A stretch of 64,000 nt of DNA from a virus (lineage: Duplodnaviria > Caudoviricetes), in IMG/VR virus record IMGVR_UViG_3300020450_001133; one strand, written 5' to 3'. The notes under the pieces were generated by a model. It was not told the origin of the DNA. It made no database searches and saw nothing but the letters and a program-made list of their open reading frames with translations. Of the stretch, positions 26,204 through 37,348 are shown piece after piece. How positions within the stretch are numbered: position 1 is the stretch's first letter; each line of letters opens with the position of its first letter. A program made the position numbers and the translations under genes.

Positions 26204-27232
26204 ATGCCAAGATTACAACTGTGGAACAAGTTCAAAAAGAATGACTATGACTTCATAGACAGAATAACTGCCGAATTTATTAATGCAGGTGGTACAGGTG
26301 TTTTTGTTCACAAATACATTGGGACATATCAAGATGATACCACTGCTAGTATAGGGTCAGATGAACTTTATATACAAGATGTGCTGTTTTTAGAAAACAG
26401 AGATAGAAAGTATGATACTGATATTTACGAATTAAGGGGTTCATATACACCTGCAGATCCAGATTTTGATTTAACACAATTTGGTTTATTTGTAAACAAT
26501 GATAATATTTTTATGACTTTCCACATGAATACATGTGCAAGTTTACTTGGCAGACGTTTAATGGCAGGTGATGTTGTTGAATTGCCACATCTAAGAGATG
26601 ATTTATTATTAGGTGGTGGTGATGCTGTAAACAGATTCTTTGTTGTAAGTGATTCAGGCAGACCAGCAGAAGGATATGATCCTAGATGGTGGCCTCACTT
26701 ATGGAGAGTCAAACTTACAAACATTACTGATAGTCCAGAATACAGAGATATATTAGGAACAGGCGATACTGCTACTGACCTTAGAAATACATTAAGTACT
26801 TACAGTACTGAACTTGCTATTTCAGATAAGGTTATGGAACTTGCCAATGCTGATGTAAAATATGACACAGGTTACTTTGAAGGTGGACATTTATACATAG
26901 ATGAAAACAGTCAAGATAAACCAGGTGTACATTTTTCAGGCGATGGTACTCCTCCAAATGGTATAAGTATTGTTGGCAGTGGTACAAGTTTCCCTGCAAG
27001 TTGTGAAAACGGAGATTATTTCTTGAGAACAGATTTTGAACCAAACAGATTATTTAAAAAGAACGGATCTAGATGGAGTAAAGTAAGTGACGATACCACT
27101 AGAAAATGGTCAGCCGCAAACAAACTGCTTACAACATTTGTTAATAATAGTAACATTACCACAAACAGTGATGGTACTACACAGGCAGAAAAAACTAATT
27201 TAAGTAAAGCGGTAAAACCAAAGGCAGATTAA
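26204..27232 (+). CDS. neck/head-closure protein (gp14-like)
   Basis: IQDVLFLENRDRKYD, LTQFGLF, MAGDVVELPH, WWPHLWRVK; precedes gp15. Confidence 0.8.
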   Translation: MPRLQLWNKFKKNDYDFIDRITAEFINAGGTGVFVHKYIGTYQDDTTASIGSDELYIQDVLFLENRDRKYDTDIYELRGSYTPADPDFDLTQFGLFVNNDNIFMTFHMNTCASLLGRRLMAGDVVELPHLRDDLLLGGGDAVNRFFVVSDSGRPAEGYDPRWWPHLWRVKLTNITDSPEYRDILGTGDTATDLRNTLSTYSTELAISDKVMELANADVKYDTGYFEGGHLYIDENSQDKPGVHFSGDGTPPNGISIVGSGTSFPASCENGDYFLRTDFEPNRLFKKNGSRWSKVSDDTTRKWSAANKLLTTFVNNSNITTNSDGTTQAEKTNLSKAVKPKAD

Positions 27233-28649: not shown

Positions 28650-29122
28650 GTATTTTAGATAAAATAAATCCTTTAACAAATCTAAGAAAGCACAAAGGCG
28701 TTACCGGTGCAGGTGTATTATTTTTAGCACTAGACACAGGCAGATGCTTATTCCAATTAAGAAACAGTGATAAACGTCATAAAAACACTTGGGGTTTTTG
28801 GGGAGGCATGTTAGAAGGTAACGAAACTCCATATGAATGTATTCAACGTGAACTAGATGAAGAAATAGGTTTTGTACCAGAACTTAAAAAATTAAATCCA
28901 ATAGACACATACCAAAGTAAAGATAAAAACTTTATGTATTACAGTTTTGTGTATGTAATAGACAAAGAATTTATTCCAAAACTTAACGGAGAAACTTGTG
29001 GTTATGCTTGGGTAGACATAGGCAAGTGGCCCAAACCATTGCATGACGGAGCAAGAAGCACATTAGGAAGAAATAAAGGTGTAGGTAAACTGCACACTAT
29101 TTTACAAATCAATTCTAAATAA
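28577..29122 (+). CDS. Nudix hydrolase (start uncertain)
   Basis: GGMLEGNETPYECIQRELDEEIG Nudix box. Confidence 0.88.
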   Translation: MGKQYMDKHLRRSVQSRVLETQHISILDKINPLTNLRKHKGVTGAGVLFLALDTGRCLFQLRNSDKRHKNTWGFWGGMLEGNETPYECIQRELDEEIGFVPELKKLNPIDTYQSKDKNFMYYSFVYVIDKEFIPKLNGETCGYAWVDIGKWPKPLHDGARSTLGRNKGVGKLHTILQINSK

Positions 29123-29130
29123 ATACTAGC

Positions 29131-29760
29131 ATGTCAAAAGATATTATAAATTTTGATGCTATTCGTTTGACGACTGAACTAAACAAATATCAGCGACATA
29201 AGGAAATACCTAATAGTTTTTTAGACGGCACATTCACAATACTAGATGTAAAAGAAATTTTACCCACACTAAACAGAAAACACCAAATTATTGCTAACAA
29301 ACTTATTAAACAATATGACGTAGATGTCAAACAAAGTAAAGATGGTTTACTTAAAGTTTTCTTAAACGAATACAGGTCATTCTTAAACAACCAACAAACA
29401 AGAAATGAACGTTGGGTGTTTCCTAACGTCATGAAAAAATATCGTTACAATATTAATCCTGTTAGAGCATTAACATATGATGTTAGAGAAATGGCTTACT
29501 CATTTAATCCAGATAATGACCATCATATTTGGCTACAAGAATTAGTAACAGATCCAAATTTCTATCACAGAATAATTCAAGACATAATTAAAGATAGAAA
29601 AAAAGTTGATAAAATTATTAACTATTATGTTCCTTTATTTAATACTGCTAATATTAATTTTGAAGAGCCACTAGAAATGAAACATCTAAGGACTTTAAGA
29701 ACAGATTTATTAGAGTATGCAAACTTGTTTACACAATTCAGAAAATACTACCCAGAGTAA
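29131..29760 (+). CDS. hypothetical protein
   Basis: 209-aa ORF with AATAAATA 5 nt upstream. Confidence 0.6.
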   Translation: MSKDIINFDAIRLTTELNKYQRHKEIPNSFLDGTFTILDVKEILPTLNRKHQIIANKLIKQYDVDVKQSKDGLLKVFLNEYRSFLNNQQTRNERWVFPNVMKKYRYNINPVRALTYDVREMAYSFNPDNDHHIWLQELVTDPNFYHRIIQDIIKDRKKVDKIINYYVPLFNTANINFEEPLEMKHLRTLRTDLLEYANLFTQFRKYYPE

Positions 29761-29812
29761 AAGTTATAAACAAATAACTTGAATATAACTTTTTTGTATA
29801 TAAATATCTTTC

Positions 29813-30046
29813 ATGACACAACCAAAACATGTAAAAGAATATTACAACAATATAACATATCCTGAATATACCGAAGAAGATAAAAAACGTGGTATGAACA
29901 ACAAAGACTTAGATTTCATGACTGACGGAAACAACGGCATGTACTATTCTGTTTTCCTTCCATCGTTAATGGCAATTGGTATGGGTATTCTTCCTTTTAT
30001 AGTGATGTTTATATTTTTTGAAAAGCCAGAGTTTTTAAAACCGTAA
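29813..30046 (+). CDS. small membrane protein
   Basis: 77 aa with one C-terminal hydrophobic span; TATAAATA 6 nt upstream. Confidence 0.65.
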   Translation: MTQPKHVKEYYNNITYPEYTEEDKKRGMNNKDLDFMTDGNNGMYYSVFLPSLMAIGMGILPFIVMFIFFEKPEFLKP

Positions 30047-31924
30047 TTACTTGTAAAGTAATCTTTTAGCAGATTCGCCGTTTATTAATGGTGCATATAT
30101 TTTAATTGGATCTTCTTTTCCTTTAACAGTTACCGAGCCTAAGTTTTCATAAACTTGTCCAGTATCTCTAAAACTGTTTAAAGTAAATTCACTATACAAT
30201 ATAGGAGTGTCTTGTTTTCTAGTTTCTGCTTCTAATCTAGCCGCTAAATTTACAGCATCGCCTATAACACTATAATCTAATCTACTTTCACTGCCCATAT
30301 TACCAACAATGCATGTGCCTGTGTTTATTCCTGTGCCAAATTTTACTCTAGGTAGTCCTAGTTTTTCCATTTCTTTTTCTAGTTCATCACCTAACAATTC
30401 AATTTCTATTGCACTTTTAAGAGCCATGTCAGCATGATTATCACAAGGTATTGGAGCATTCCAAAATGCCATTATACAGTCGCCCATATACTTGTCGATT
30501 GTTCCACCATTGGCAAGTATAATTTTTGTCATTCTATCTAAGAAACTGTTAATTAATTCTACTAGTCCTTCGGGGTCATCTTGCTTCATGAACTTTTCTG
30601 ATATAGGTGTAAAGCCTACAATGTCTGCAAATAGGAAACTCATTTCTCTTCTTTCGCCACCTAACTTCATTAAACTTGGATCTTTTACTAACATATCAAC
30701 ATAGTCTGGTGATATGTACTTGCTAAATTGTCCTTTTATTTGCTGTCTTAGTCTATATTGCTTGTAAAAATTGTTAAATGCACTATGAGTAAACACCAAA
30801 AATCCACTCAAAACTGGAAAAGTTGCATCAATTAACATCAATTTATTGGTGTAAAACCACACACTTGCATAGGCTTCTGTACCCAAAATCAGCATGGAAA
30901 TTGGTGCTGTCCACACTAAAGGTAACTTATAAACAGCAAAACCTATCAAAACCATGCCCATAAAAGCAACTAGAAGCTCTATAAAGGGCGATAATTCATT
31001 TCGTGTTATGTTACTACCATCTACAAAGTTTTGTAGCATATGGCCCTGTATTTGCTGTGGATACATATTGCCTTTTGGAGTAGGAACAGGATTTTGTATG
31101 CCTTCTGCACTAACTCCTACTATAACAAATTTACCTTTTAGGTCTGGTAGGCTGTTTATGTCCACATATTCTACTTCTTCAAATGTATTATTAAATCTTA
31201 TAAATGCTGTTCCATCAGTTTGTGTAACAATAGGTTCAAAAGGTGGAACTGCAAATTCTTGTATTCCTAGTTCAGATGTTTTTAACATATAACTTGGCTT
31301 TTGTGTATATGTTCTAAGAAGTTCAATAGCAAGACTTGGGTAAATTTTACCCTCAACTCCTATTGCTAATGGATAAGTTCTTGTGACTAAATCAGGTTGT
31401 GGTGCTGATGCAAGTACACCTATGCCTTCTGCATGTTCTTCAAGTGTCGGAATGTTTGTTACTAGGTTGGGCCAACTTAATAGGAAGTCCTGTGCTGGTA
31501 AAGGGCCTATCGTCCCTGTGCCAATGTGCGGACCTGTACTCCTTACTCCTTTGGTACTTGGGGTCTGGGATAAAATCACTCCGTTCCCTTTTATCCAACT
31601 CGCTAGGACTTCGTCCCCTCCGAAACGATCCGCCTCCGGAAACATCACGGTCAATCCAATCATACCACCATTGTTCTGTCTGATATCGTGGATTAGTTGT
31701 GCAAAATTCTGTCTGGGCCATGGCCATTGTCCCCATTGTTGTAAACTTTTTTCACCTATGTTTATTATTACAACTTCATCACTTTGTTTTACTTCATCTA
31801 AGTTTTGTAATGCATCAAAGGTTTGTAATCTTAAACTTTGTAGTGGCGTTGGGTCAAATATTTTTATTGTTGTTAGTAAACATATTGTTACCACAACTGC
31901 CCATCCACTGTAAAACCATTTCAT
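30047..31924 (-). CDS. CHASE2-domain class III adenylate cyclase
   Basis: N-terminal TM, extracytoplasmic CHASE2-like region (QWGQWPWPR), three TMs, then FLFADIVGFT, DKYMGDCIMAFW, GINTG, DYSVIGDAVNLAARLE. Confidence 0.92.
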   Translation of the reverse strand: MKWFYSGWAVVVTICLLTTIKIFDPTPLQSLRLQTFDALQNLDEVKQSDEVVIINIGEKSLQQWGQWPWPRQNFAQLIHDIRQNNGGMIGLTVMFPEADRFGGDEVLASWIKGNGVILSQTPSTKGVRSTGPHIGTGTIGPLPAQDFLLSWPNLVTNIPTLEEHAEGIGVLASAPQPDLVTRTYPLAIGVEGKIYPSLAIELLRTYTQKPSYMLKTSELGIQEFAVPPFEPIVTQTDGTAFIRFNNTFEEVEYVDINSLPDLKGKFVIVGVSAEGIQNPVPTPKGNMYPQQIQGHMLQNFVDGSNITRNELSPFIELLVAFMGMVLIGFAVYKLPLVWTAPISMLILGTEAYASVWFYTNKLMLIDATFPVLSGFLVFTHSAFNNFYKQYRLRQQIKGQFSKYISPDYVDMLVKDPSLMKLGGERREMSFLFADIVGFTPISEKFMKQDDPEGLVELINSFLDRMTKIILANGGTIDKYMGDCIMAFWNAPIPCDNHADMALKSAIEIELLGDELEKEMEKLGLPRVKFGTGINTGTCIVGNMGSESRLDYSVIGDAVNLAARLEAETRKQDTPILYSEFTLNSFRDTGQVYENLGSVTVKGKEDPIKIYAPLINGESAKRLLYK

Positions 31925-31947
31925 GTATGTATTTATTTGCTAAGAGT

Positions 31948-32883
31948 CTAGTCTTGAGTTATTGTGATTGAACAACCACCAGCAGTTTGACATGTTTGAT
32001 TGAGATTATAAGTTTGTGCTGTACCACTATTTTGTGTTAAATTTAATGTAGTTGGTTGTGTTCCATATAAAGTTATAGTGGCATTGTGAGCACCATTACC
32101 TTTCTGTACTCCGCTTATTTGACTGCCATCTTGATAACTTTTATAGTTTACAGTTTTATTTCCGTCATTAATTTGTTTCCACCATATATCATTGTTATCA
32201 GCATATATCCATATATTTGCAGTATGACTACCTGGTGTATTAGTATTACCATTTGTTTGATATCCTGCAATAACATTATTGTCTCCATGATAGTCTAAAA
32301 TAACTTTGTGACCGCCATGTTCAGCACCATCACCTTCATTAAATGTTGTGTCATTGATATTGTTAAGTCCAACACCTTGACCCCATCTCATAAGATTGTT
32401 GTCTCCCCAAACGTGAAAACCTGCTTCTGAATATACACAATTATTATCTTCTGTACATTTTTGTTTTATGTAAATGTCATTGTCAACACCATCTACGTCA
32501 CCACAAAATGTTGCGTTTGGACAATTCACTTTACCCCATGTGCTAGTAAATCCAGCAAAATTCTTTTGTCCTTCTTGTGAAATTTTAACTAAATTACCAT
32601 CACCTGACACGGAAAATTCTACATCATTGTCTTCACCTAACTGCCCAATCCACATTGTTAAATTATCAACATTACCATATGTTAATCCTAAATCTAAATC
32701 AATGTGTTGTCCTTTACCATCTTGTAAAATAGTTAATTCTAAGTTGTCACCTACTTGGTCAATATGAACGTGATTGTGTTCTTCTCCTCCCCAAGCATCG
32801 TTGGCAATTAGTAGGCCCATACCTAAAAGTAAACCGCCTATTAACCAGTTACCAATCCTATTATTTAATTTTGACTCTTTCAT
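31948..32883 (-). CDS. secreted curlin-like repeat protein
   Basis: Signal peptide; repeated Q-x-G-x-x-N / GDNN units; C-terminal CQTAGGCSITITQD. Start at 32883 overlaps the FecR stop. Confidence 0.65.
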   Translation of the reverse strand: MKESKLNNRIGNWLIGGLLLGMGLLIANDAWGGEEHNHVHIDQVGDNLELTILQDGKGQHIDLDLGLTYGNVDNLTMWIGQLGEDNDVEFSVSGDGNLVKISQEGQKNFAGFTSTWGKVNCPNATFCGDVDGVDNDIYIKQKCTEDNNCVYSEAGFHVWGDNNLMRWGQGVGLNNINDTTFNEGDGAEHGGHKVILDYHGDNNVIAGYQTNGNTNTPGSHTANIWIYADNNDIWWKQINDGNKTVNYKSYQDGSQISGVQKGNGAHNATITLYGTQPTTLNLTQNSGTAQTYNLNQTCQTAGGCSITITQD

Positions 32884-34085
32884 TAATCTACCTGTATAAT
32901 TGTAATAAATGTACCTTCGCAATCATTTAAACATATTGTGGCATCTTTTAAATTACTATCTTCTACAAATATTTGGGCACTATTACCTGAATTAATTCTA
33001 ACACTTACTGTATTTGTTACCTGTCTAAAAAAGAATAATTTACCATCTTCTAAGACTGTGTTAAATTGTGTTTCAGGGTCAAACCCTATTGCAGTACCTG
33101 TAATTTTATCTGCGGCTAATCTACCTTCAGATTCGCTACCACTTTCTGCTTTATCTTCTCCTACACTTACTTCTTCTATTTCTTCAAGTAAGTCTTGTAA
33201 AAAATCAACATCTAGAAAATTTATATCTAGTGTTGTAAATTCTAAATCTTCTGTTGTGTCTGCTAACACATCTGCTTCAATGGCATTAGCATCTAATCCA
33301 TCAAAGTCTAAAAGTCCAGCATCACCTTTTGCTTCTTCTTGTTGTTCCTCAACTGCTTCTTTAATTTCAGTTGGTTCACTTACAATAAACATGTTATCAA
33401 TCATGTCTAAATTCAAGTCCGCAAGTAAAACAGGATTTGTTGGAGCCTGTTCTAATGTACTAACCATAACAGCCTGAAAGGCTTCAGTTAATACTTGTTG
33501 ACCACCATCATTTGTAATTGTTATACTACCTGACGGTCTGCAACCTTCTTCTAACTTTACTGTATCTGTACAGCCTGAGTCTGGTAATAATATTACTAGA
33601 CTTCTTCCTAACTCATCAACAGTAGTTGTAAAGTCAGTACCCCTGATACCAATTGTGGCTGTAGGAGTTTGTACGACTATATTTTCCTTAGGTACCAATC
33701 CTAATCCACCAGTGGCAAAACGTGCCGTTCCTTGCACAAAATCTAATGCCATCCTGCTTTTACTTGGATCAGGATCGTACACATATTCATTAATAACCAT
33801 ATATGTGTGTTCAGTTAAACTTACCTGTGTATCATCGACAAATTTTAATTTTAAACGACCATTAATCGTTTCAACTTCGTCCATGCTCTGTATGTCTGTG
33901 TCTAGTTCTGCAATCAATTTTTCACCAGACGTTCTATTAATACTACCGGGTGAGCCAACTTGCTCAAATACTCCGCCGATACTTTCAATGGCACCGGCGG
34001 AAATACTATATGTTGCACTAAACAACAAAAATGCATATAAACAAACTTTAGTCAGTCTGTCTAATTGAAACTGAAGCATTTTCAC
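32883..34085 (-). CDS. FecR-domain periplasmic protein
   Basis: Signal peptide; DEVET..GRLKLKFVDDTQVSL, LDFVQGTARFATG, VQTPTATIGIRGTDF are FecR-domain hallmarks. Confidence 0.85.
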   Translation of the reverse strand: MKMLQFQLDRLTKVCLYAFLLFSATYSISAGAIESIGGVFEQVGSPGSINRTSGEKLIAELDTDIQSMDEVETINGRLKLKFVDDTQVSLTEHTYMVINEYVYDPDPSKSRMALDFVQGTARFATGGLGLVPKENIVVQTPTATIGIRGTDFTTTVDELGRSLVILLPDSGCTDTVKLEEGCRPSGSITITNDGGQQVLTEAFQAVMVSTLEQAPTNPVLLADLNLDMIDNMFIVSEPTEIKEAVEEQQEEAKGDAGLLDFDGLDANAIEADVLADTTEDLEFTTLDINFLDVDFLQDLLEEIEEVSVGEDKAESGSESEGRLAADKITGTAIGFDPETQFNTVLEDGKLFFFRQVTNTVSVRINSGNSAQIFVEDSNLKDATICLNDCEGTFITIIQVD

Positions 34086-34866
34086 TGTCTAAATCAACGT
34101 CTATTTTACCAGTACAGGCAGGAGTACACGATGCCGCATTACTTTGTAGGAATTGGAAATCACCATCTGAACCTACTAAAACAAATTTTAAGTAATGGTT
34201 AGAGTTACCTGTTTGGTTAGATGTGATAGCATTATCATCACCTGTGATATTCATTTCCCAAGTTGCGGAACCGGCGTCAACTTTTATACCACTTTGTGAA
34301 AAAGCGGATGTATTGTTCCAGTCAGAACCAGGAGTACCACTCCATGCTTTTGAGTTGGAAACAGCACTTCTAAAGTCGTTCCTGTCACCTAGTATTGTCA
34401 AATCCATATTAAGGTTGTCTGCGGCATAGTTACCACCAATATCTACATCAAAAATGTTAGTATCACCTTGAACATTCCAAAGCATATCAACATTATCTGC
34501 ACTACCAGTTGCACCTATGTTTAAATCTAATGAATTAGAATCTCCTAAAAAGTAGAAATCCCATACTGTTGATCCAGAACCGTCTCCAGTCCATGCACCA
34601 AATATTTCATTAGCATCACCGTCTTGAATGATATCAATAATCAAGTTAGATCCTGTAATAACTAAATCGCTACCATCAGAAGCATCACCTGATATTTTGT
34701 TACCAGCACCAGCCTGTAATATGGTCAAAGTTAAATTGTCCCCTTGTTGGTCTAATAAAACTTCGTTGTCGTCAGCACCTAAGGCAGGAGCAAATAATCC
34801 TACTGTTAGGCCCATAACTGCGAAGACATTGATTGCAAAATTCTTAAACAAATTTTTAGTCTTCAT
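34048..34866 (-). CDS. secreted curlin-like repeat protein (paralogue of 31948-32883)
   Basis: Signal peptide ending ALG-A; DNEVLLDQQGDNLTLTILQAG matches NHVHIDQVGDNLELTILQDG of the paralogue; G(D)xN repeats; CTPAC near the C-terminus. Confidence 0.65.
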   Translation of the reverse strand: MKTKNLFKNFAINVFAVMGLTVGLFAPALGADDNEVLLDQQGDNLTLTILQAGAGNKISGDASDGSDLVITGSNLIIDIIQDGDANEIFGAWTGDGSGSTVWDFYFLGDSNSLDLNIGATGSADNVDMLWNVQGDTNIFDVDIGGNYAADNLNMDLTILGDRNDFRSAVSNSKAWSGTPGSDWNNTSAFSQSGIKVDAGSATWEMNITGDDNAITSNQTGNSNHYLKFVLVGSDGDFQFLQSNAASCTPACTGKIDVDLDSENASVSIRQTD

Positions 34867-35836
34867 CCTTATCTCCATTATTCTTTAGGAGCATTTTCTC
34901 CCAAAGTTTCTTATCGGCTTTAAGATCCTTTTCGTCAATGTCAACTTGCATCCATGTTGCGTTTTCACCTTCAACTAATTCTTGAACGTCCCAACCCTCA
35001 GGATATACAATTTTCCAATAACCTCTCTCATCGCCTTGTTGTATTAATGCCAATACTGCGGCTTCAATAGCCGAACGTACTGCCCATGTAACACTTTCGT
35101 TCTCTGTCATACCACTTTCTAACTCTAGAAGTTTTGTGTCCATATCTAAAAATCTAAACACATCGCCTCCAATACCTGTACTCAAAATGGTTTTGTATGT
35201 CTGTACGTTGAGTAACACTTCGCCAGTGAGTGTGCTTACGGCTCTCAGTGATACAACAACACTATCTCTTCGATATTGGTTTGTTGTCCCAATACCTAGA
35301 TATCTTGCACCATTACCTCCAGTTTCAACATTAGTGTCGTATCCAATGATACCACCTTCTAATATCATACCTGCAAACAATAGTGGTTGGACTCCTTCTG
35401 CTGGTTTTTCTTCAGTGGCAAACTGTTCACGAGTACTTCGAACAATTTGTCTTTCCCTCACAAGGTTGTCTAGTCCTAAACCTCTTTCTACAACTCTAAA
35501 CCACGTGCCTTTAGGATCATCCTTGGCACCTGCGGCTTTTAATGAGTCAATTAATAAATCTTTTGCACCCTGCGTAACTGCGGTGCTGAAACTTGCAACT
35601 CCGTCTGAACTCACTCTTTGTCCAGTTAAGTCATCAAATTTATAAACTGCAACCACTGGCATAACTTCTGCCGGTGGCAAATTTCTTAGTTTCTTATATG
35701 TTGGTAATTCTACGAATTTAGGCTCTTCGATACATTCCAATAATGATGTATTGCAGACTTTGTCGCCAGGTATGGAAATGCTGGCGCATCCGCTAATTAG
35801 CAAAGCAAATAATACTGCTATTATTCCATTTTTCAA
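34856..35836 (-). CDS. csgG: curli secretion channel lipoprotein CsgG
   Basis: Lipobox LISGC; VAVYKFDDLTGQR, STAVTQG, WFRVVER.GLDNLVRERQIVRSTR, LLFAGMILEGGIIGYDTN, YRRDSVVVSLRAVS. Confidence 0.93.
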   Translation of the reverse strand: MKNGIIAVLFALLISGCASISIPGDKVCNTSLLECIEEPKFVELPTYKKLRNLPPAEVMPVVAVYKFDDLTGQRVSSDGVASFSTAVTQGAKDLLIDSLKAAGAKDDPKGTWFRVVERGLGLDNLVRERQIVRSTREQFATEEKPAEGVQPLLFAGMILEGGIIGYDTNVETGGNGARYLGIGTTNQYRRDSVVVSLRAVSTLTGEVLLNVQTYKTILSTGIGGDVFRFLDMDTKLLELESGMTENESVTWAVRSAIEAAVLALIQQGDERGYWKIVYPEGWDVQELVEGENATWMQVDIDEKDLKADKKLWEKMLLKNNGDKDED

Positions 35837-35839
35837 CTT

Positions 35840-36340
35840 TTACCCGCCTAATGTTCCAATTCCGATAGGTATTTCTATTTCTGTTACTGTTCCATCTGCG
35901 TCTATAATAGTTAATTGAATATACTCAATTCCATCTATTGTAATTACCTGGTATGAGACGTTACTGTCTTCAATAGTAAATGCACCTTCGGTAGAATTGG
36001 TACAAGTTGGTACTTCTGCAGGATTACAAAACATACTATCTACTAATCCTTTAGAAATCTGACTGTAAATTCTGCTTTCCAAATTTCTAATAAACTTATT
36101 AATAGTGCTGTTTGATTCTGCTCTTTCAGCCGCTCTTAAAGCCGCTTCTATATCATCTCTAATTTTATCTTTTCTGCTCTTTTCTTGATTTTCAATTGTC
36201 AAATAATGAGCACCGGTTCCTATTCCACTAAAACTTGGGTTCTTAAACTTATGTGTTAGTTTGTCAGCGAAAACCGTTTGTGATGCAAAAAATGCCAACA
36301 TTACGCCAATTCCTAAAATTCTTCCTGTAATTTTATTCAT
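35840..36340 (-). CDS. csgF: curli assembly protein CsgF
   Basis: Signal peptide, then LTHKFKNPSFSG...YLTIENQ; FIRNLESRIYSQIS; C-terminal TIIDADGTVTEIEIP; adjacent to csgG. Confidence 0.85.
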   Translation of the reverse strand: MNKITGRILGIGVMLAFFASQTVFADKLTHKFKNPSFSGIGTGAHYLTIENQEKSRKDKIRDDIEAALRAAERAESNSTINKFIRNLESRIYSQISKGLVDSMFCNPAEVPTCTNSTEGAFTIEDSNVSYQVITIDGIEYIQLTIIDADGTVTEIEIPIGIGTLGG

Positions 36341-36639
36341 TTTTTCTTTTTTATAGCCTCTTCTTTTTCAGCAAGGGCCTCCTTTTCCTCCGCGTCTTGG
36401 AGGACTTCTTGTCGTGCTCTATATTCTAGCACAACATCTACTTTTTGTTGCAAACGAATCAAGTCTTGATCCAACATTCTTGTTTGGTCTATGACTCTTA
36501 TAAGAGCCATATGCATTTTGCCTAATGCAGGTTTTATTTCTGTGTTAATGTATTTCCATACATAAAAAATGAAATATCCTAACCCTACACAGGCTACAAC
36601 TGGAAAGCCATATTGGGAAACTAATGCCGCAACGTCCAT
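36337..36639 (-). CDS. small single-TM membrane protein (YvrJ/holin-like N-terminus)
   Basis: VSQYGFPVVACVGLGYFIFYVW followed by a coiled coil. Confidence 0.55.
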   Translation of the reverse strand: MDVAALVSQYGFPVVACVGLGYFIFYVWKYINTEIKPALGKMHMALIRVIDQTRMLDQDLIRLQQKVDVVLEYRARQEVLQDAEEKEALAEKEEAIKKKK

Positions 36640-36941
36640 TAATCTCTCCTAACGTCGAGTTTACCATCCTCAATAAAGTTTTCCGCTCTGGCAACTCGTT
36701 CTATATCAGGTCTTAATTCCAACGCACTACTGACTAACATATCGATTTTAATCATCTCGTTACTCATAGTTCTTGCTCTATTTTCTAAGGATTCGCAAAA
36801 CTTTGTCAAAGTTTGTACCTGACCGACGACGCCAGCCATTAGTTGTTTAATAATAATAAAGATAAATGCTCCCATTACCAATGCTCCGGCAATAGGGAAT
36901 CCTACCTCTGCTATTAATTGAAATACTTCGTTCATCTGCAC
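36639..36941 (-). CDS. small single-TM membrane protein, same architecture as 36337-36639
   Basis: IAEVGFPIAGALVMGAFIFIII followed by a coiled coil; ATG probably at 36935. Confidence 0.55.
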   Translation of the reverse strand: MQMNEVFQLIAEVGFPIAGALVMGAFIFIIIKQLMAGVVGQVQTLTKFCESLENRARTMSNEMIKIDMLVSSALELRPDIERVARAENFIEDGKLDVRRD

Positions 36942-37081
36942 ACTCTGTCTTTTTATCTTTCATTTGTAGTGTGTACTTTTTGTGTTACTTCCTACAAATA
37001 GGATCTACAGTCCTACGCAGTTATTTATCACTTTTCTTGGCAAAGATTTTGATATAGACTAATCTATTTGATAAATAAATG

Positions 37082-37318: not shown

Positions 37319-37348
37319 AAAAAAAAGCACCCGGAAGGGTGCTTTTTT
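37319..37348. terminator. bidirectional intrinsic terminator
   Basis: AAAAAAAAGCACCC-GGAA-GGGTGCTTTTTT between convergent genes. Confidence 0.85.

Follow-up and report, generated by a model that had tools for sequence, protein, structure and literature searches.

A marine PA5oct-like jumbo phage carries the phage curli module with a FecR-domain protein of curlin-like end and a predicted CHASE2 adenylate cyclase

We analysed a 64,000-nucleotide (nt) stretch of phage DNA (IMG/VR record IMGVR_UViG_3300020450_001133; Duplodnaviria, Caudoviricetes), called here the window, which carries on its minus strand, between positions 30047 and 36941, eight co-directional open reading frames (ORFs) in the order TM1-TM2-CsgF-CsgG-CurA-FecR-CurB-cyclase. 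This gene set is almost certainly the published phage curli module, also known as type VIII secretion system (T8SS), and the operon itself is already in the literature. The additions made here to the published module are incremental: its carriage by a jumbo phage, its origin as a chimera of two cellular modules, the assignment of a CHASE2 domain to its cyclase, a curlin-like tail on its FecR-domain protein, and the correction of the labels "HK" (histidine kinase) and "iron regulator" borne by some of its products. As to function, the balance of the evidence tilts towards late export of fibres through CsgG and CsgF, accompanied by a FecR-CHASE2 sensor pair that would set the level of cyclic AMP (cAMP).

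The end of the FecR-domain protein is the sole sequence-level hint that the fibre half and the cyclase half of the operon communicate. Behind its signal peptide, this protein has a FecR domain resembling that of PupR, and a linker that is acidic and disordered connects it to a small C-terminal domain, rich in beta structure, which ends in I-x-I-x-Q. The AlphaFold2 (AF2) model of its N-terminal domain matches the periplasmic domain of PupR (6ovm) with a Z of 15.1 over 137 residues and a root mean square deviation (rmsd) of 2.5. No N-terminal cytoplasmic anti-sigma domain was found in the protein, and neither a sigma factor nor a TonB-dependent receptor is encoded in the operon; since a signal peptide stands in place of the cytoplasmic anti-sigma part, the protein should not be classed as a FecR-type iron-citrate regulator. 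A tail was counted as positive when [ILVF]-x-[ILVF]-x-Q fell no more than four residues from the C-terminus. All of the phage FecR proteins carry this motif (34/34, plus 7/7 in phage contigs binned into metagenome-assembled genomes, MAGs, hence 41/41), as do 32 of 36 CurA proteins, 20 of 22 CurB proteins and the four bona fide alphaproteobacterial curlins compared (4/4). By contrast, it is absent from every bacterial FecR partner of CHASE2 proteins (0/36 and 0/34, hence 0/70), and the background among unrelated ORFs amounts to 0.6-2%. Residues I394, I396 and Q398 do not vary in the alignment of FecR proteins, unlike the rest of the C-terminal domain, the likeness to curlins being confined to the terminal h-x-h-x-Q strand. 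The possession of a curlin-type C-terminal strand suggests that the phage FecR is probably coupled physically to the curlin/CsgG pathway, beyond co-transcription.

Two other segments of the FecR protein were considered. The N-terminal sequence IGGVFEQxG, tried as a first curlin repeat, was rejected because it aligns as the ordinary first strand of a FecR domain, which we take to be the usual one of that Pfam family. The linker contains an invariant acidic amphipathic motif, LDINFLDVDFLxDLL, predicted to be helical (residues 286-300, positions 33186-33230), which is kept from the window's clade out to the most distant phage clade.

The genes of the operon are tightly packed. TM1 and TM2 overlap by 1 nt, TM2 and csgF by 4 nt, csgF and csgG are separated by 3 nt, overlaps occur at the csgG/CurA and CurA/FecR junctions, and 23 nt separate CurB from the cyclase gene, whereas a convergent gene abuts the 3' end of the operon. 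The longest ORF of CurB starts at 32922 (324 aa); translation probably begins at the ATG at 32883, which has 1 nt in common with the stop codon of FecR. A first-pass annotation, made from the letters of the window alone, had described one contiguous minus-strand operon of overlapping or near-abutting genes; all eight ORFs were recovered where it had placed them, and the identities it had given to the genes were confirmed by Pfam matches, judged against gathering cut-offs, for CHASE2, Guanylate_cyc, FecR, CsgG, CsgF and Curlin_rpt (Table 1). Compared with the closest relatives (loci L003, L005 and L028), dN/dS lies between 0.05 and 0.18 in all eight genes, which are under purifying selection.

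CsgG and CsgF retain their key motifs. Over its entire domain, the phage CsgG can be aligned with that of E. coli (3x2r; E 4e-44), and the constriction loop FSTAV is preserved, Phe included. CsgF scores well above its Pfam cut-off of 25.8 bits, and its N-terminal F-x-N-P-x-F-x-G aligns with the N-terminus of E. coli CsgF in 6l7a, that is, with the peptide that plugs into the CsgG barrel, although the constriction residue itself differs in the phage protein. Signal peptides were found on CsgF, CurA, FecR and CurB. CurA and CurB are clear paralogs (profile-profile E 4e-61); against a Curlin_rpt cut-off of 20.7 bits, CurB scores above (24.9 bits) and CurA under (18.1 bits). The h-x-h-x-Q motif occurs 5 times in CurA and 10 times in CurB, compared to 0.8 and 1.3 expected, respectively, and is not enriched in the other proteins. 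CurA occupies the slot of the first curlin gene in alphaproteobacterial operons.

The AF2 model of CurB (predicted local distance difference test, pLDDT, 74; predicted template modelling score, pTM, 0.75) consists of beta structure throughout, in some 20 short paired strands. In an exhaustive VIA structural search, its top match in the PDB was CsgA of Pontibacter korlensis (8c50; Z 19.5, 231 residues, 22% identity, rmsd 8.9), four Z units over generic beta-helices; a Foldseek search of the same model against the PDB and Swiss-Prot models returned no significant match. The model points to a CsgA-type beta-solenoid. It had been anticipated that both secreted proteins would be beta-solenoids, an expectation that the model bears out for CurB and that extends to CurA by paralogy only. 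In the window's clade, CurA, FecR and CurB (31948-34878) each display a Cys pair, C-x3-C or C-x5-C, just ahead of the terminal strand; CurB has two additional pairs, and the FecR proteins of more distant clades have none. These Cys pairs may form disulfide-locked turns.

According to its hydropathy, the cyclase consists of a transmembrane helix, a periplasmic CHASE2 domain (about residues 25-310, the Pfam match covering residues 17-328), three transmembrane helices and a cytoplasmic catalytic domain. Its catalytic residues align one by one with those of the adenylate cyclase CyaB of P. aeruginosa (3r5g), namely the metal aspartates D434 and D482, the lysine K478 of IDKYMGD, the aspartate D550, the asparagine N559 and the arginine R563, in agreement with the earlier remark that the Lys of DKYMGD and the N..R pair are typical of ATP-specific enzymes. 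Among 42 cyclase homologs D434 is invariant, and K478, D482 and R563 are each conserved in at least 90%; the natural guanylate cyclase Cya2 (2w01) has a Glu at the position of K478. The enzyme is predicted to be a class III adenylate cyclase, with the full ATP-type residue set. A complex prediction between CHASE2 (residues 23-313) and the FecR domain (residues 34-235) gave a score of 0.13 for a mark of 0.32, which speaks neither for nor against binding.

The two halves of the operon have separate counterparts in cells. An alphaproteobacterial curli operon is credited in PMC7029224 to Dueholm et al. (2012). At the two alphaproteobacterial loci with the closest cellular CsgG (L044 and L045, Sphingomonas), csgF-csgG-curlin-curlin is found and nothing else. 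The phage module follows this order and likewise has no CsgE, CsgC or CsgD; its CsgG is 43-49% identical to alphaproteobacterial CsgG, and the curlins there also end in h-x-h-x-Q. By contrast, in the alphaproteobacterial operons the two curlin genes are not separated by a FecR gene, and the cyclase and TM1/TM2 are absent; the phage curlins match Curlin_rpt just weakly. In Proteobacteria, at least 11 of 37 FecR-anchored loci (L054-L090) have a CHASE2 cyclase gene immediately preceded by a FecR gene, and the same FecR-then-CHASE2 pairing is seen in 12 of 80 cyclase-anchored loci, 33 of which have a FecR gene within 9 kb. FecR and CHASE2 are a genuine bacterial pair, as had been supposed, and curli genes lie beside this pair in none of 125 cellular loci. 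The phage cyclase is 28-35% identical to alphaproteobacterial cyclases. Since csgF-csgG-curlin-curlin operons and FecR-CHASE2 pairs are separate in the cellular loci compared, the phage module is a fusion of two cellular modules, a chimera with FecR inserted between the curlins and two small membrane proteins set in front.

The bacterial FecR-CHASE2 pairs resemble that of the phage in that a secreted FecR protein is encoded directly upstream of a sensor with one transmembrane helix, CHASE2, three transmembrane helices and a cytoplasmic output. However, the bacterial FecR partners possess other C-terminal parts (LysM, long extensions or other tails) in which the curlin-like strand is lacking, and their genes do not lie beside curli genes. 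Among described pairs, the "BiofilmReg" operon of Burkholderia combines a LysM-FecR protein with a CHASE2 histidine kinase (PMC5192318), and in S. meliloti the CHASE2 cyclases CyaD1, CyaD2 and CyaK act with the outer-membrane protein NsrA (PMC13001267), whereas the FecR-domain protein SMc02177 is a Clr target (PMC5498481). The statement in the first-pass annotation that rhizobia pair CHASE2 cyclases with FecR-containing envelope proteins thus holds for the cyclases and their partner NsrA, but a FecR domain in NsrA is not stated in the literature covered. Direct FecR-CHASE2 binding in the pairs of Proteobacteria, Burkholderia or S. meliloti is not demonstrated there either.

A curli cluster was reported in pelagimyophages by Zaragoza-Solas et al. 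2020 (PMC7029224) and discussed for the Methylophilales phage Melnitz by Buchholz et al. 2022 (PMC9004378). Wittmers et al. 2022 (PMC9599517) then described a viral T8SS module consisting of "HK", CsgF, CsgG, CsgA/B, FecR, a second CsgA/B and an adenylate cyclase, which is conserved in myo- and podophages, expressed in metatranscriptomes and of alphaproteobacterial origin, and for which the aggregation and superinfection hypotheses were already proposed. A tblastn search and a look-up of annotations showed that the GenBank record of Melnitz already names CsgF, CsgG, two curlin-repeat proteins, a FecR-domain protein and a cyclase. The first-pass annotation had presented the operon as new; the same gene order is found in the Pelagibacter phage HTVC008M and in Melnitz and the full module in PMC9599517, and identical operons were therefore already well described. 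In the three phage T8SS papers (PMC9599517, PMC7029224 and PMC9004378), CHASE2 is unnamed, and FecR is presented as an iron regulator and the small proteins as histidine kinases.

Compared to the viral T8SS of pelagiphages and methylophages (HTVC008M, Melnitz, pelagimyophage MAGs and HTVC023P-type podophages), the window has the same gene content and order, with 26-51% identity between its proteins and their HTVC008M and Melnitz counterparts; the lack of CsgC, CsgD and CsgE and the expression in marine metatranscriptomes are also common to both. Unlike the known carriers, which are phages of Pelagibacter or OM43 and belong to the Kyanoviridae or the HTVC023P type, the carrier here is a PA5oct-like jumbo phage, and the genomic site differs from that of HTVC008M, the module standing between a tail-fibre gene and NUDIX/sheath-stabiliser genes. 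With E. coli curli (csgBAC, csgDEFG), the phage module has in common the CsgG nonameric channel family, the N-terminal plug peptide of CsgF, and beta-solenoid subunits with Q/N-rich strand-turn-strand repeats. By contrast with E. coli, it has no CsgE gate, CsgC chaperone or CsgD regulator. The phage subunits, which contain Cys pairs, are two to three times as long as CsgA, and the putative promoter of the module is of the phage late type.

The identity of the carrier was deduced from the major capsid protein (MCP) and the portal protein, encoded by the gene pair at 45738-46877/50019-51725. The MCP is 70% identical to that of the Pseudomonas jumbo phage PA5oct; the portal protein is 53% identical to that of PA5oct and about 28% to those of Kyanoviridae, the family of HTVC008M and Melnitz, and both proteins are also close to those of Erwinia and Sinorhizobium jumbo phages. 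These comparisons assign the window to a marine PA5oct-like jumbo phage and not to a pelagimyophage. The module was not found in PA5oct itself by tblastn. Related contigs of 36-54 kb were rated 10-15% complete by CheckV, and the genome of one relative, which has terminal repeats, is complete at 344 kb.

One scan of IMG/VR yielded 41 loci with the module. A survey of the conservation of the operon in phages, suggested in the first-pass annotation, shows that the eight-gene order is kept across these loci wherever the contig is long enough, as well as in HTVC008M and Melnitz. About 30 of the IMG/VR loci share the context of the window, with a tail-fibre gene upstream and genes for a 209-aa protein, a NUDIX protein and a sheath stabiliser downstream, and the gp32/tape-measure context of HTVC008M occurs in none of them. 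The PA5oct-like MCP and portal, together with these shared flanks, indicate that a populous lineage of marine jumbo phages carries the module at a conserved site of its own. The FecR-curlin-cyclase linkage is conserved across three phage lineages; a more distant clade has no CurB, its FecR gene being followed directly by the cyclase gene. At seven loci (L004, L007, L008, L011, L014, L019 and L025), 1-3 kb of extra genes, including further curlin paralogs of about 370 aa, lie between CurB and the cyclase.

Eight full-length matches (L046-L053) came from MAG bins of unrelated phyla, assigned to Rhodobacterales, Saprospirales, Sphingobacteriales, Planctomycetaceae TMED10, Pelagibacter TMED203 and Flavobacteriaceae, and carry the whole phage module; in one of them, L048, a contig of 142 kb, the thyX context is like that of Melnitz. 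They are best read as phage contigs mis-binned into MAGs.

In the reading that we moderately favour, CsgG and CsgF would form an outer-membrane channel late in infection, and the Sec-exported beta-solenoids CurA and CurB would exit through this channel to form polymers at the cell surface. Periplasmic FecR, together with the CHASE2 domain, would constitute an envelope sensor pair setting cytoplasmic cAMP synthesis, and the phage FecR, with its acquired curlin-type end, would be physically tied to the curlin/CsgG pathway. Here we infer fibre formation, contact between FecR and CHASE2, the direction of signalling and a cAMP effector; that the assembly state of the fibre is reported to cAMP, as the first-pass annotation had proposed, we can purely infer. 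A more specific possibility, which we consider unlikely, is that the FecR-CHASE2 pair has been rewired to read phage fibre export: the FecR strand would dock on CurA/CurB or be templated by them, or would engage CsgG, and fibre flux or assembly would be converted into cAMP. If true, the infected cell would contain an outside-in signalling circuit built by the virus. The module abounds in ocean viromes and would give infected cells a secretion system that their hosts may lack; jumbo-phage carriage, the fusion of two modules and the curlin-like end of FecR sharpen the experiments that can be devised on its function.

Several observations weigh against fibre export coupled to a cAMP-setting sensor pair. 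Neither CsgE nor CsgD was found among the eight operon proteins, as had been noted in the first-pass annotation, and it is the absence of CsgE that counts here. Comparison of the whole FecR C-terminal domain with the curlin repeat by hhalign gave probabilities of 2-14% and E values of 0.002-0.02, compared to 0.04-0.17 for controls; none of 17 FecR tails matched Curlin_rpt in Pfam; and the domain does not model as a solenoid, its fold matches being just weak beta-sandwiches (Z ~3). Some related loci lack CurB or the cyclase. A cyclic nucleotide monophosphate (cNMP)-binding effector was found in none of five related records (one complete 344-kb genome and four fragments). Contigs of three marine RNA libraries that match the operon at 99% or more include none on the cyclase gene. 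Lastly, no experiment in the literature covered shows fibres, and clumping of Melnitz-infected cells was not seen (PMC9004378).

Alternatively, FecR and the cyclase might form an independent host-manipulation module, merely co-transcribed with the fibre genes, in which an envelope or external cue would act through cAMP on host metabolism. We regard this as a minor but real possibility. The FecR-cyclase pair stands alone in many bacteria that have no curli genes beside it, the FecR gene is directly followed by that of the cyclase in one phage clade, as in bacteria, and some loci carry the T8SS part without the cyclase (also in PMC9599517). However, the FecR gene lies inside the curlin gene pair, stop and start codons overlapping at its junctions, the curlin-type terminal strand is exclusive to the phage proteins among all FecR proteins compared, and the linkage is kept across three phage lineages.

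Another alternative is that the CsgG-CsgF pore itself is the product, a proposal made for Melnitz (PMC9004378). It would be a gated outer-membrane channel used for lysis timing or uptake; the holin-like small proteins would work with it, and the curlin-like proteins would not be fibre subunits. The weak holin-family matches of TM1 and TM2, the lack of a CsgE gate and the lack of aggregation in Melnitz cultures (PMC9004378) are in line with such a function, but we find it improbable: that proposal assumed that csgA and csgB were missing (PMC9004378), yet two curlin paralogs are present, under purifying selection and with a predicted CsgA-like fold, and CsgF, a requirement of fibre anchoring and not of the pore, has been retained along with the peptide by which it binds CsgG. 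It is no less doubtful that FecR serves as a structural secretion accessory, either a CsgE-like periplasmic adaptor or a CsgG substrate on the fibre, and not as a partner of CHASE2, since, although CsgE is missing and FecR, besides its signal peptide, has the invariant acidic amphipathic motif in its linker and ends in a curlin-like strand, its FecR domain is the very part common to the bacterial proteins encoded directly upstream of CHASE2 cyclases, which argues for a conserved FecR-CHASE2 function.

The first two genes of the operon encode small membrane proteins. TM1 contains a GFP motif, one transmembrane helix and a helical tail, and is paralogous to TM2 (hhalign probability 98.5%). Both have weak matches to the holin family phrog_4898 (E 2e-4 and 7e-4), and no endolysin is encoded in the operon; a holin-like nature is a weak lead. 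An Atlas search with TM1 retrieved viral hypothetical clusters only, the nearest named Atlas cluster to the small proteins being YvrJ at 0.87, again a lead only. The published "histidine kinase" label found no support, as no Pfam HisKA or HATPase_c match was obtained at E values up to 0.1 and the proteins are just 100 aa long; TM1 has no conserved His, and a His of TM2 is conserved at 73%. The pair always accompanies the module, sometimes on the opposite strand. In the clade without CurB, at loci L037, L039 and L041, TM1 and TM2 are found 3' of the cyclase gene, on the opposite strand and still adjoining the module. Their maintenance beside the module even when relocated argues that they belong to it functionally.

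Table 1. Coordinates, strand and main characteristics of the genes and signals of the operon in the window.
Feature	Position	Strand	Characteristics
Strong hairpin terminator	37321-37348		12-bp stem then T run, 3' of the upstream tail-fibre gene
Late-promoter-like motif GATAAATA, T4-type	37022-37029	minus	about 80 nt upstream of TM1
TM1, single-pass membrane protein, 100 aa	36639-36941	minus	first operon gene; phrog_18771, E 2e-25
TM2, TM1 paralog, 100 aa	36337-36639	minus	phrog_18771, E 4e-26
CsgF homolog	35840-36340	minus	signal peptide; Pfam CsgF 45.5 bits; phrog_35372
CsgG homolog, outer-membrane lipoprotein channel	34856-35836	minus	Pfam CsgG 160 bits; lipobox LISGC
CurA, secreted curlin-like subunit, 276 aa	34048-34878	minus	signal peptide; CurB paralog
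FecR-domain protein, secreted, 400 aa	32883-34085	minus	Pfam FecR 38.7 bits; signal peptide
CurB, secreted curlin-like subunit, 311 aa	31948-32883	minus	Curlin_rpt 24.9 bits; CsgA-like model
CHASE2 class III adenylate cyclase (predicted), 625 aa	30047-31924	minus	Pfam CHASE2 140 bits and Guanylate_cyc 64.5 bits

The terminator located between the tail-fibre gene and the operon isolates the latter as its own transcription unit, and comparable hairpins are found ahead of the module in many related loci. In most loci, among them HTVC008M and Melnitz, the T4-type late-promoter consensus (G/T/C)ATAAATA is found 20-110 nt ahead of TM1. The sequence GATAAATA is present upstream of the module in 20 of 30 related loci, HTVC008M and Melnitz included, and others carry TATAAATA or CATAAATA. 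As to the exact T4 late octamer TATAAATA, the window shows no enrichment, with 4 copies for 7.7 expected. The conserved upstream motif presumably acts as a late promoter, and the operon is probably one late-promoter unit.

Concerning expression, the matches of at least 99% to contigs of three marine RNA libraries, all from one study, extend over csgF, csgG, CurA and the 5' end of the FecR gene, and one 1.8-kb contig spans three genes of the module. The adjacent plus-strand genes (28868-30046) had no RNA contigs in the same three runs, and the presence of contigs on the module with none on these neighbours fits transcription. It should be noted that this evidence consists of contigs, for which DNA carry-over is possible and whose depth is no measure of expression level. 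Between positions 27000 and 41000, the contigs of highest word depth in the three metatranscriptome runs were located on CurA and csgG.

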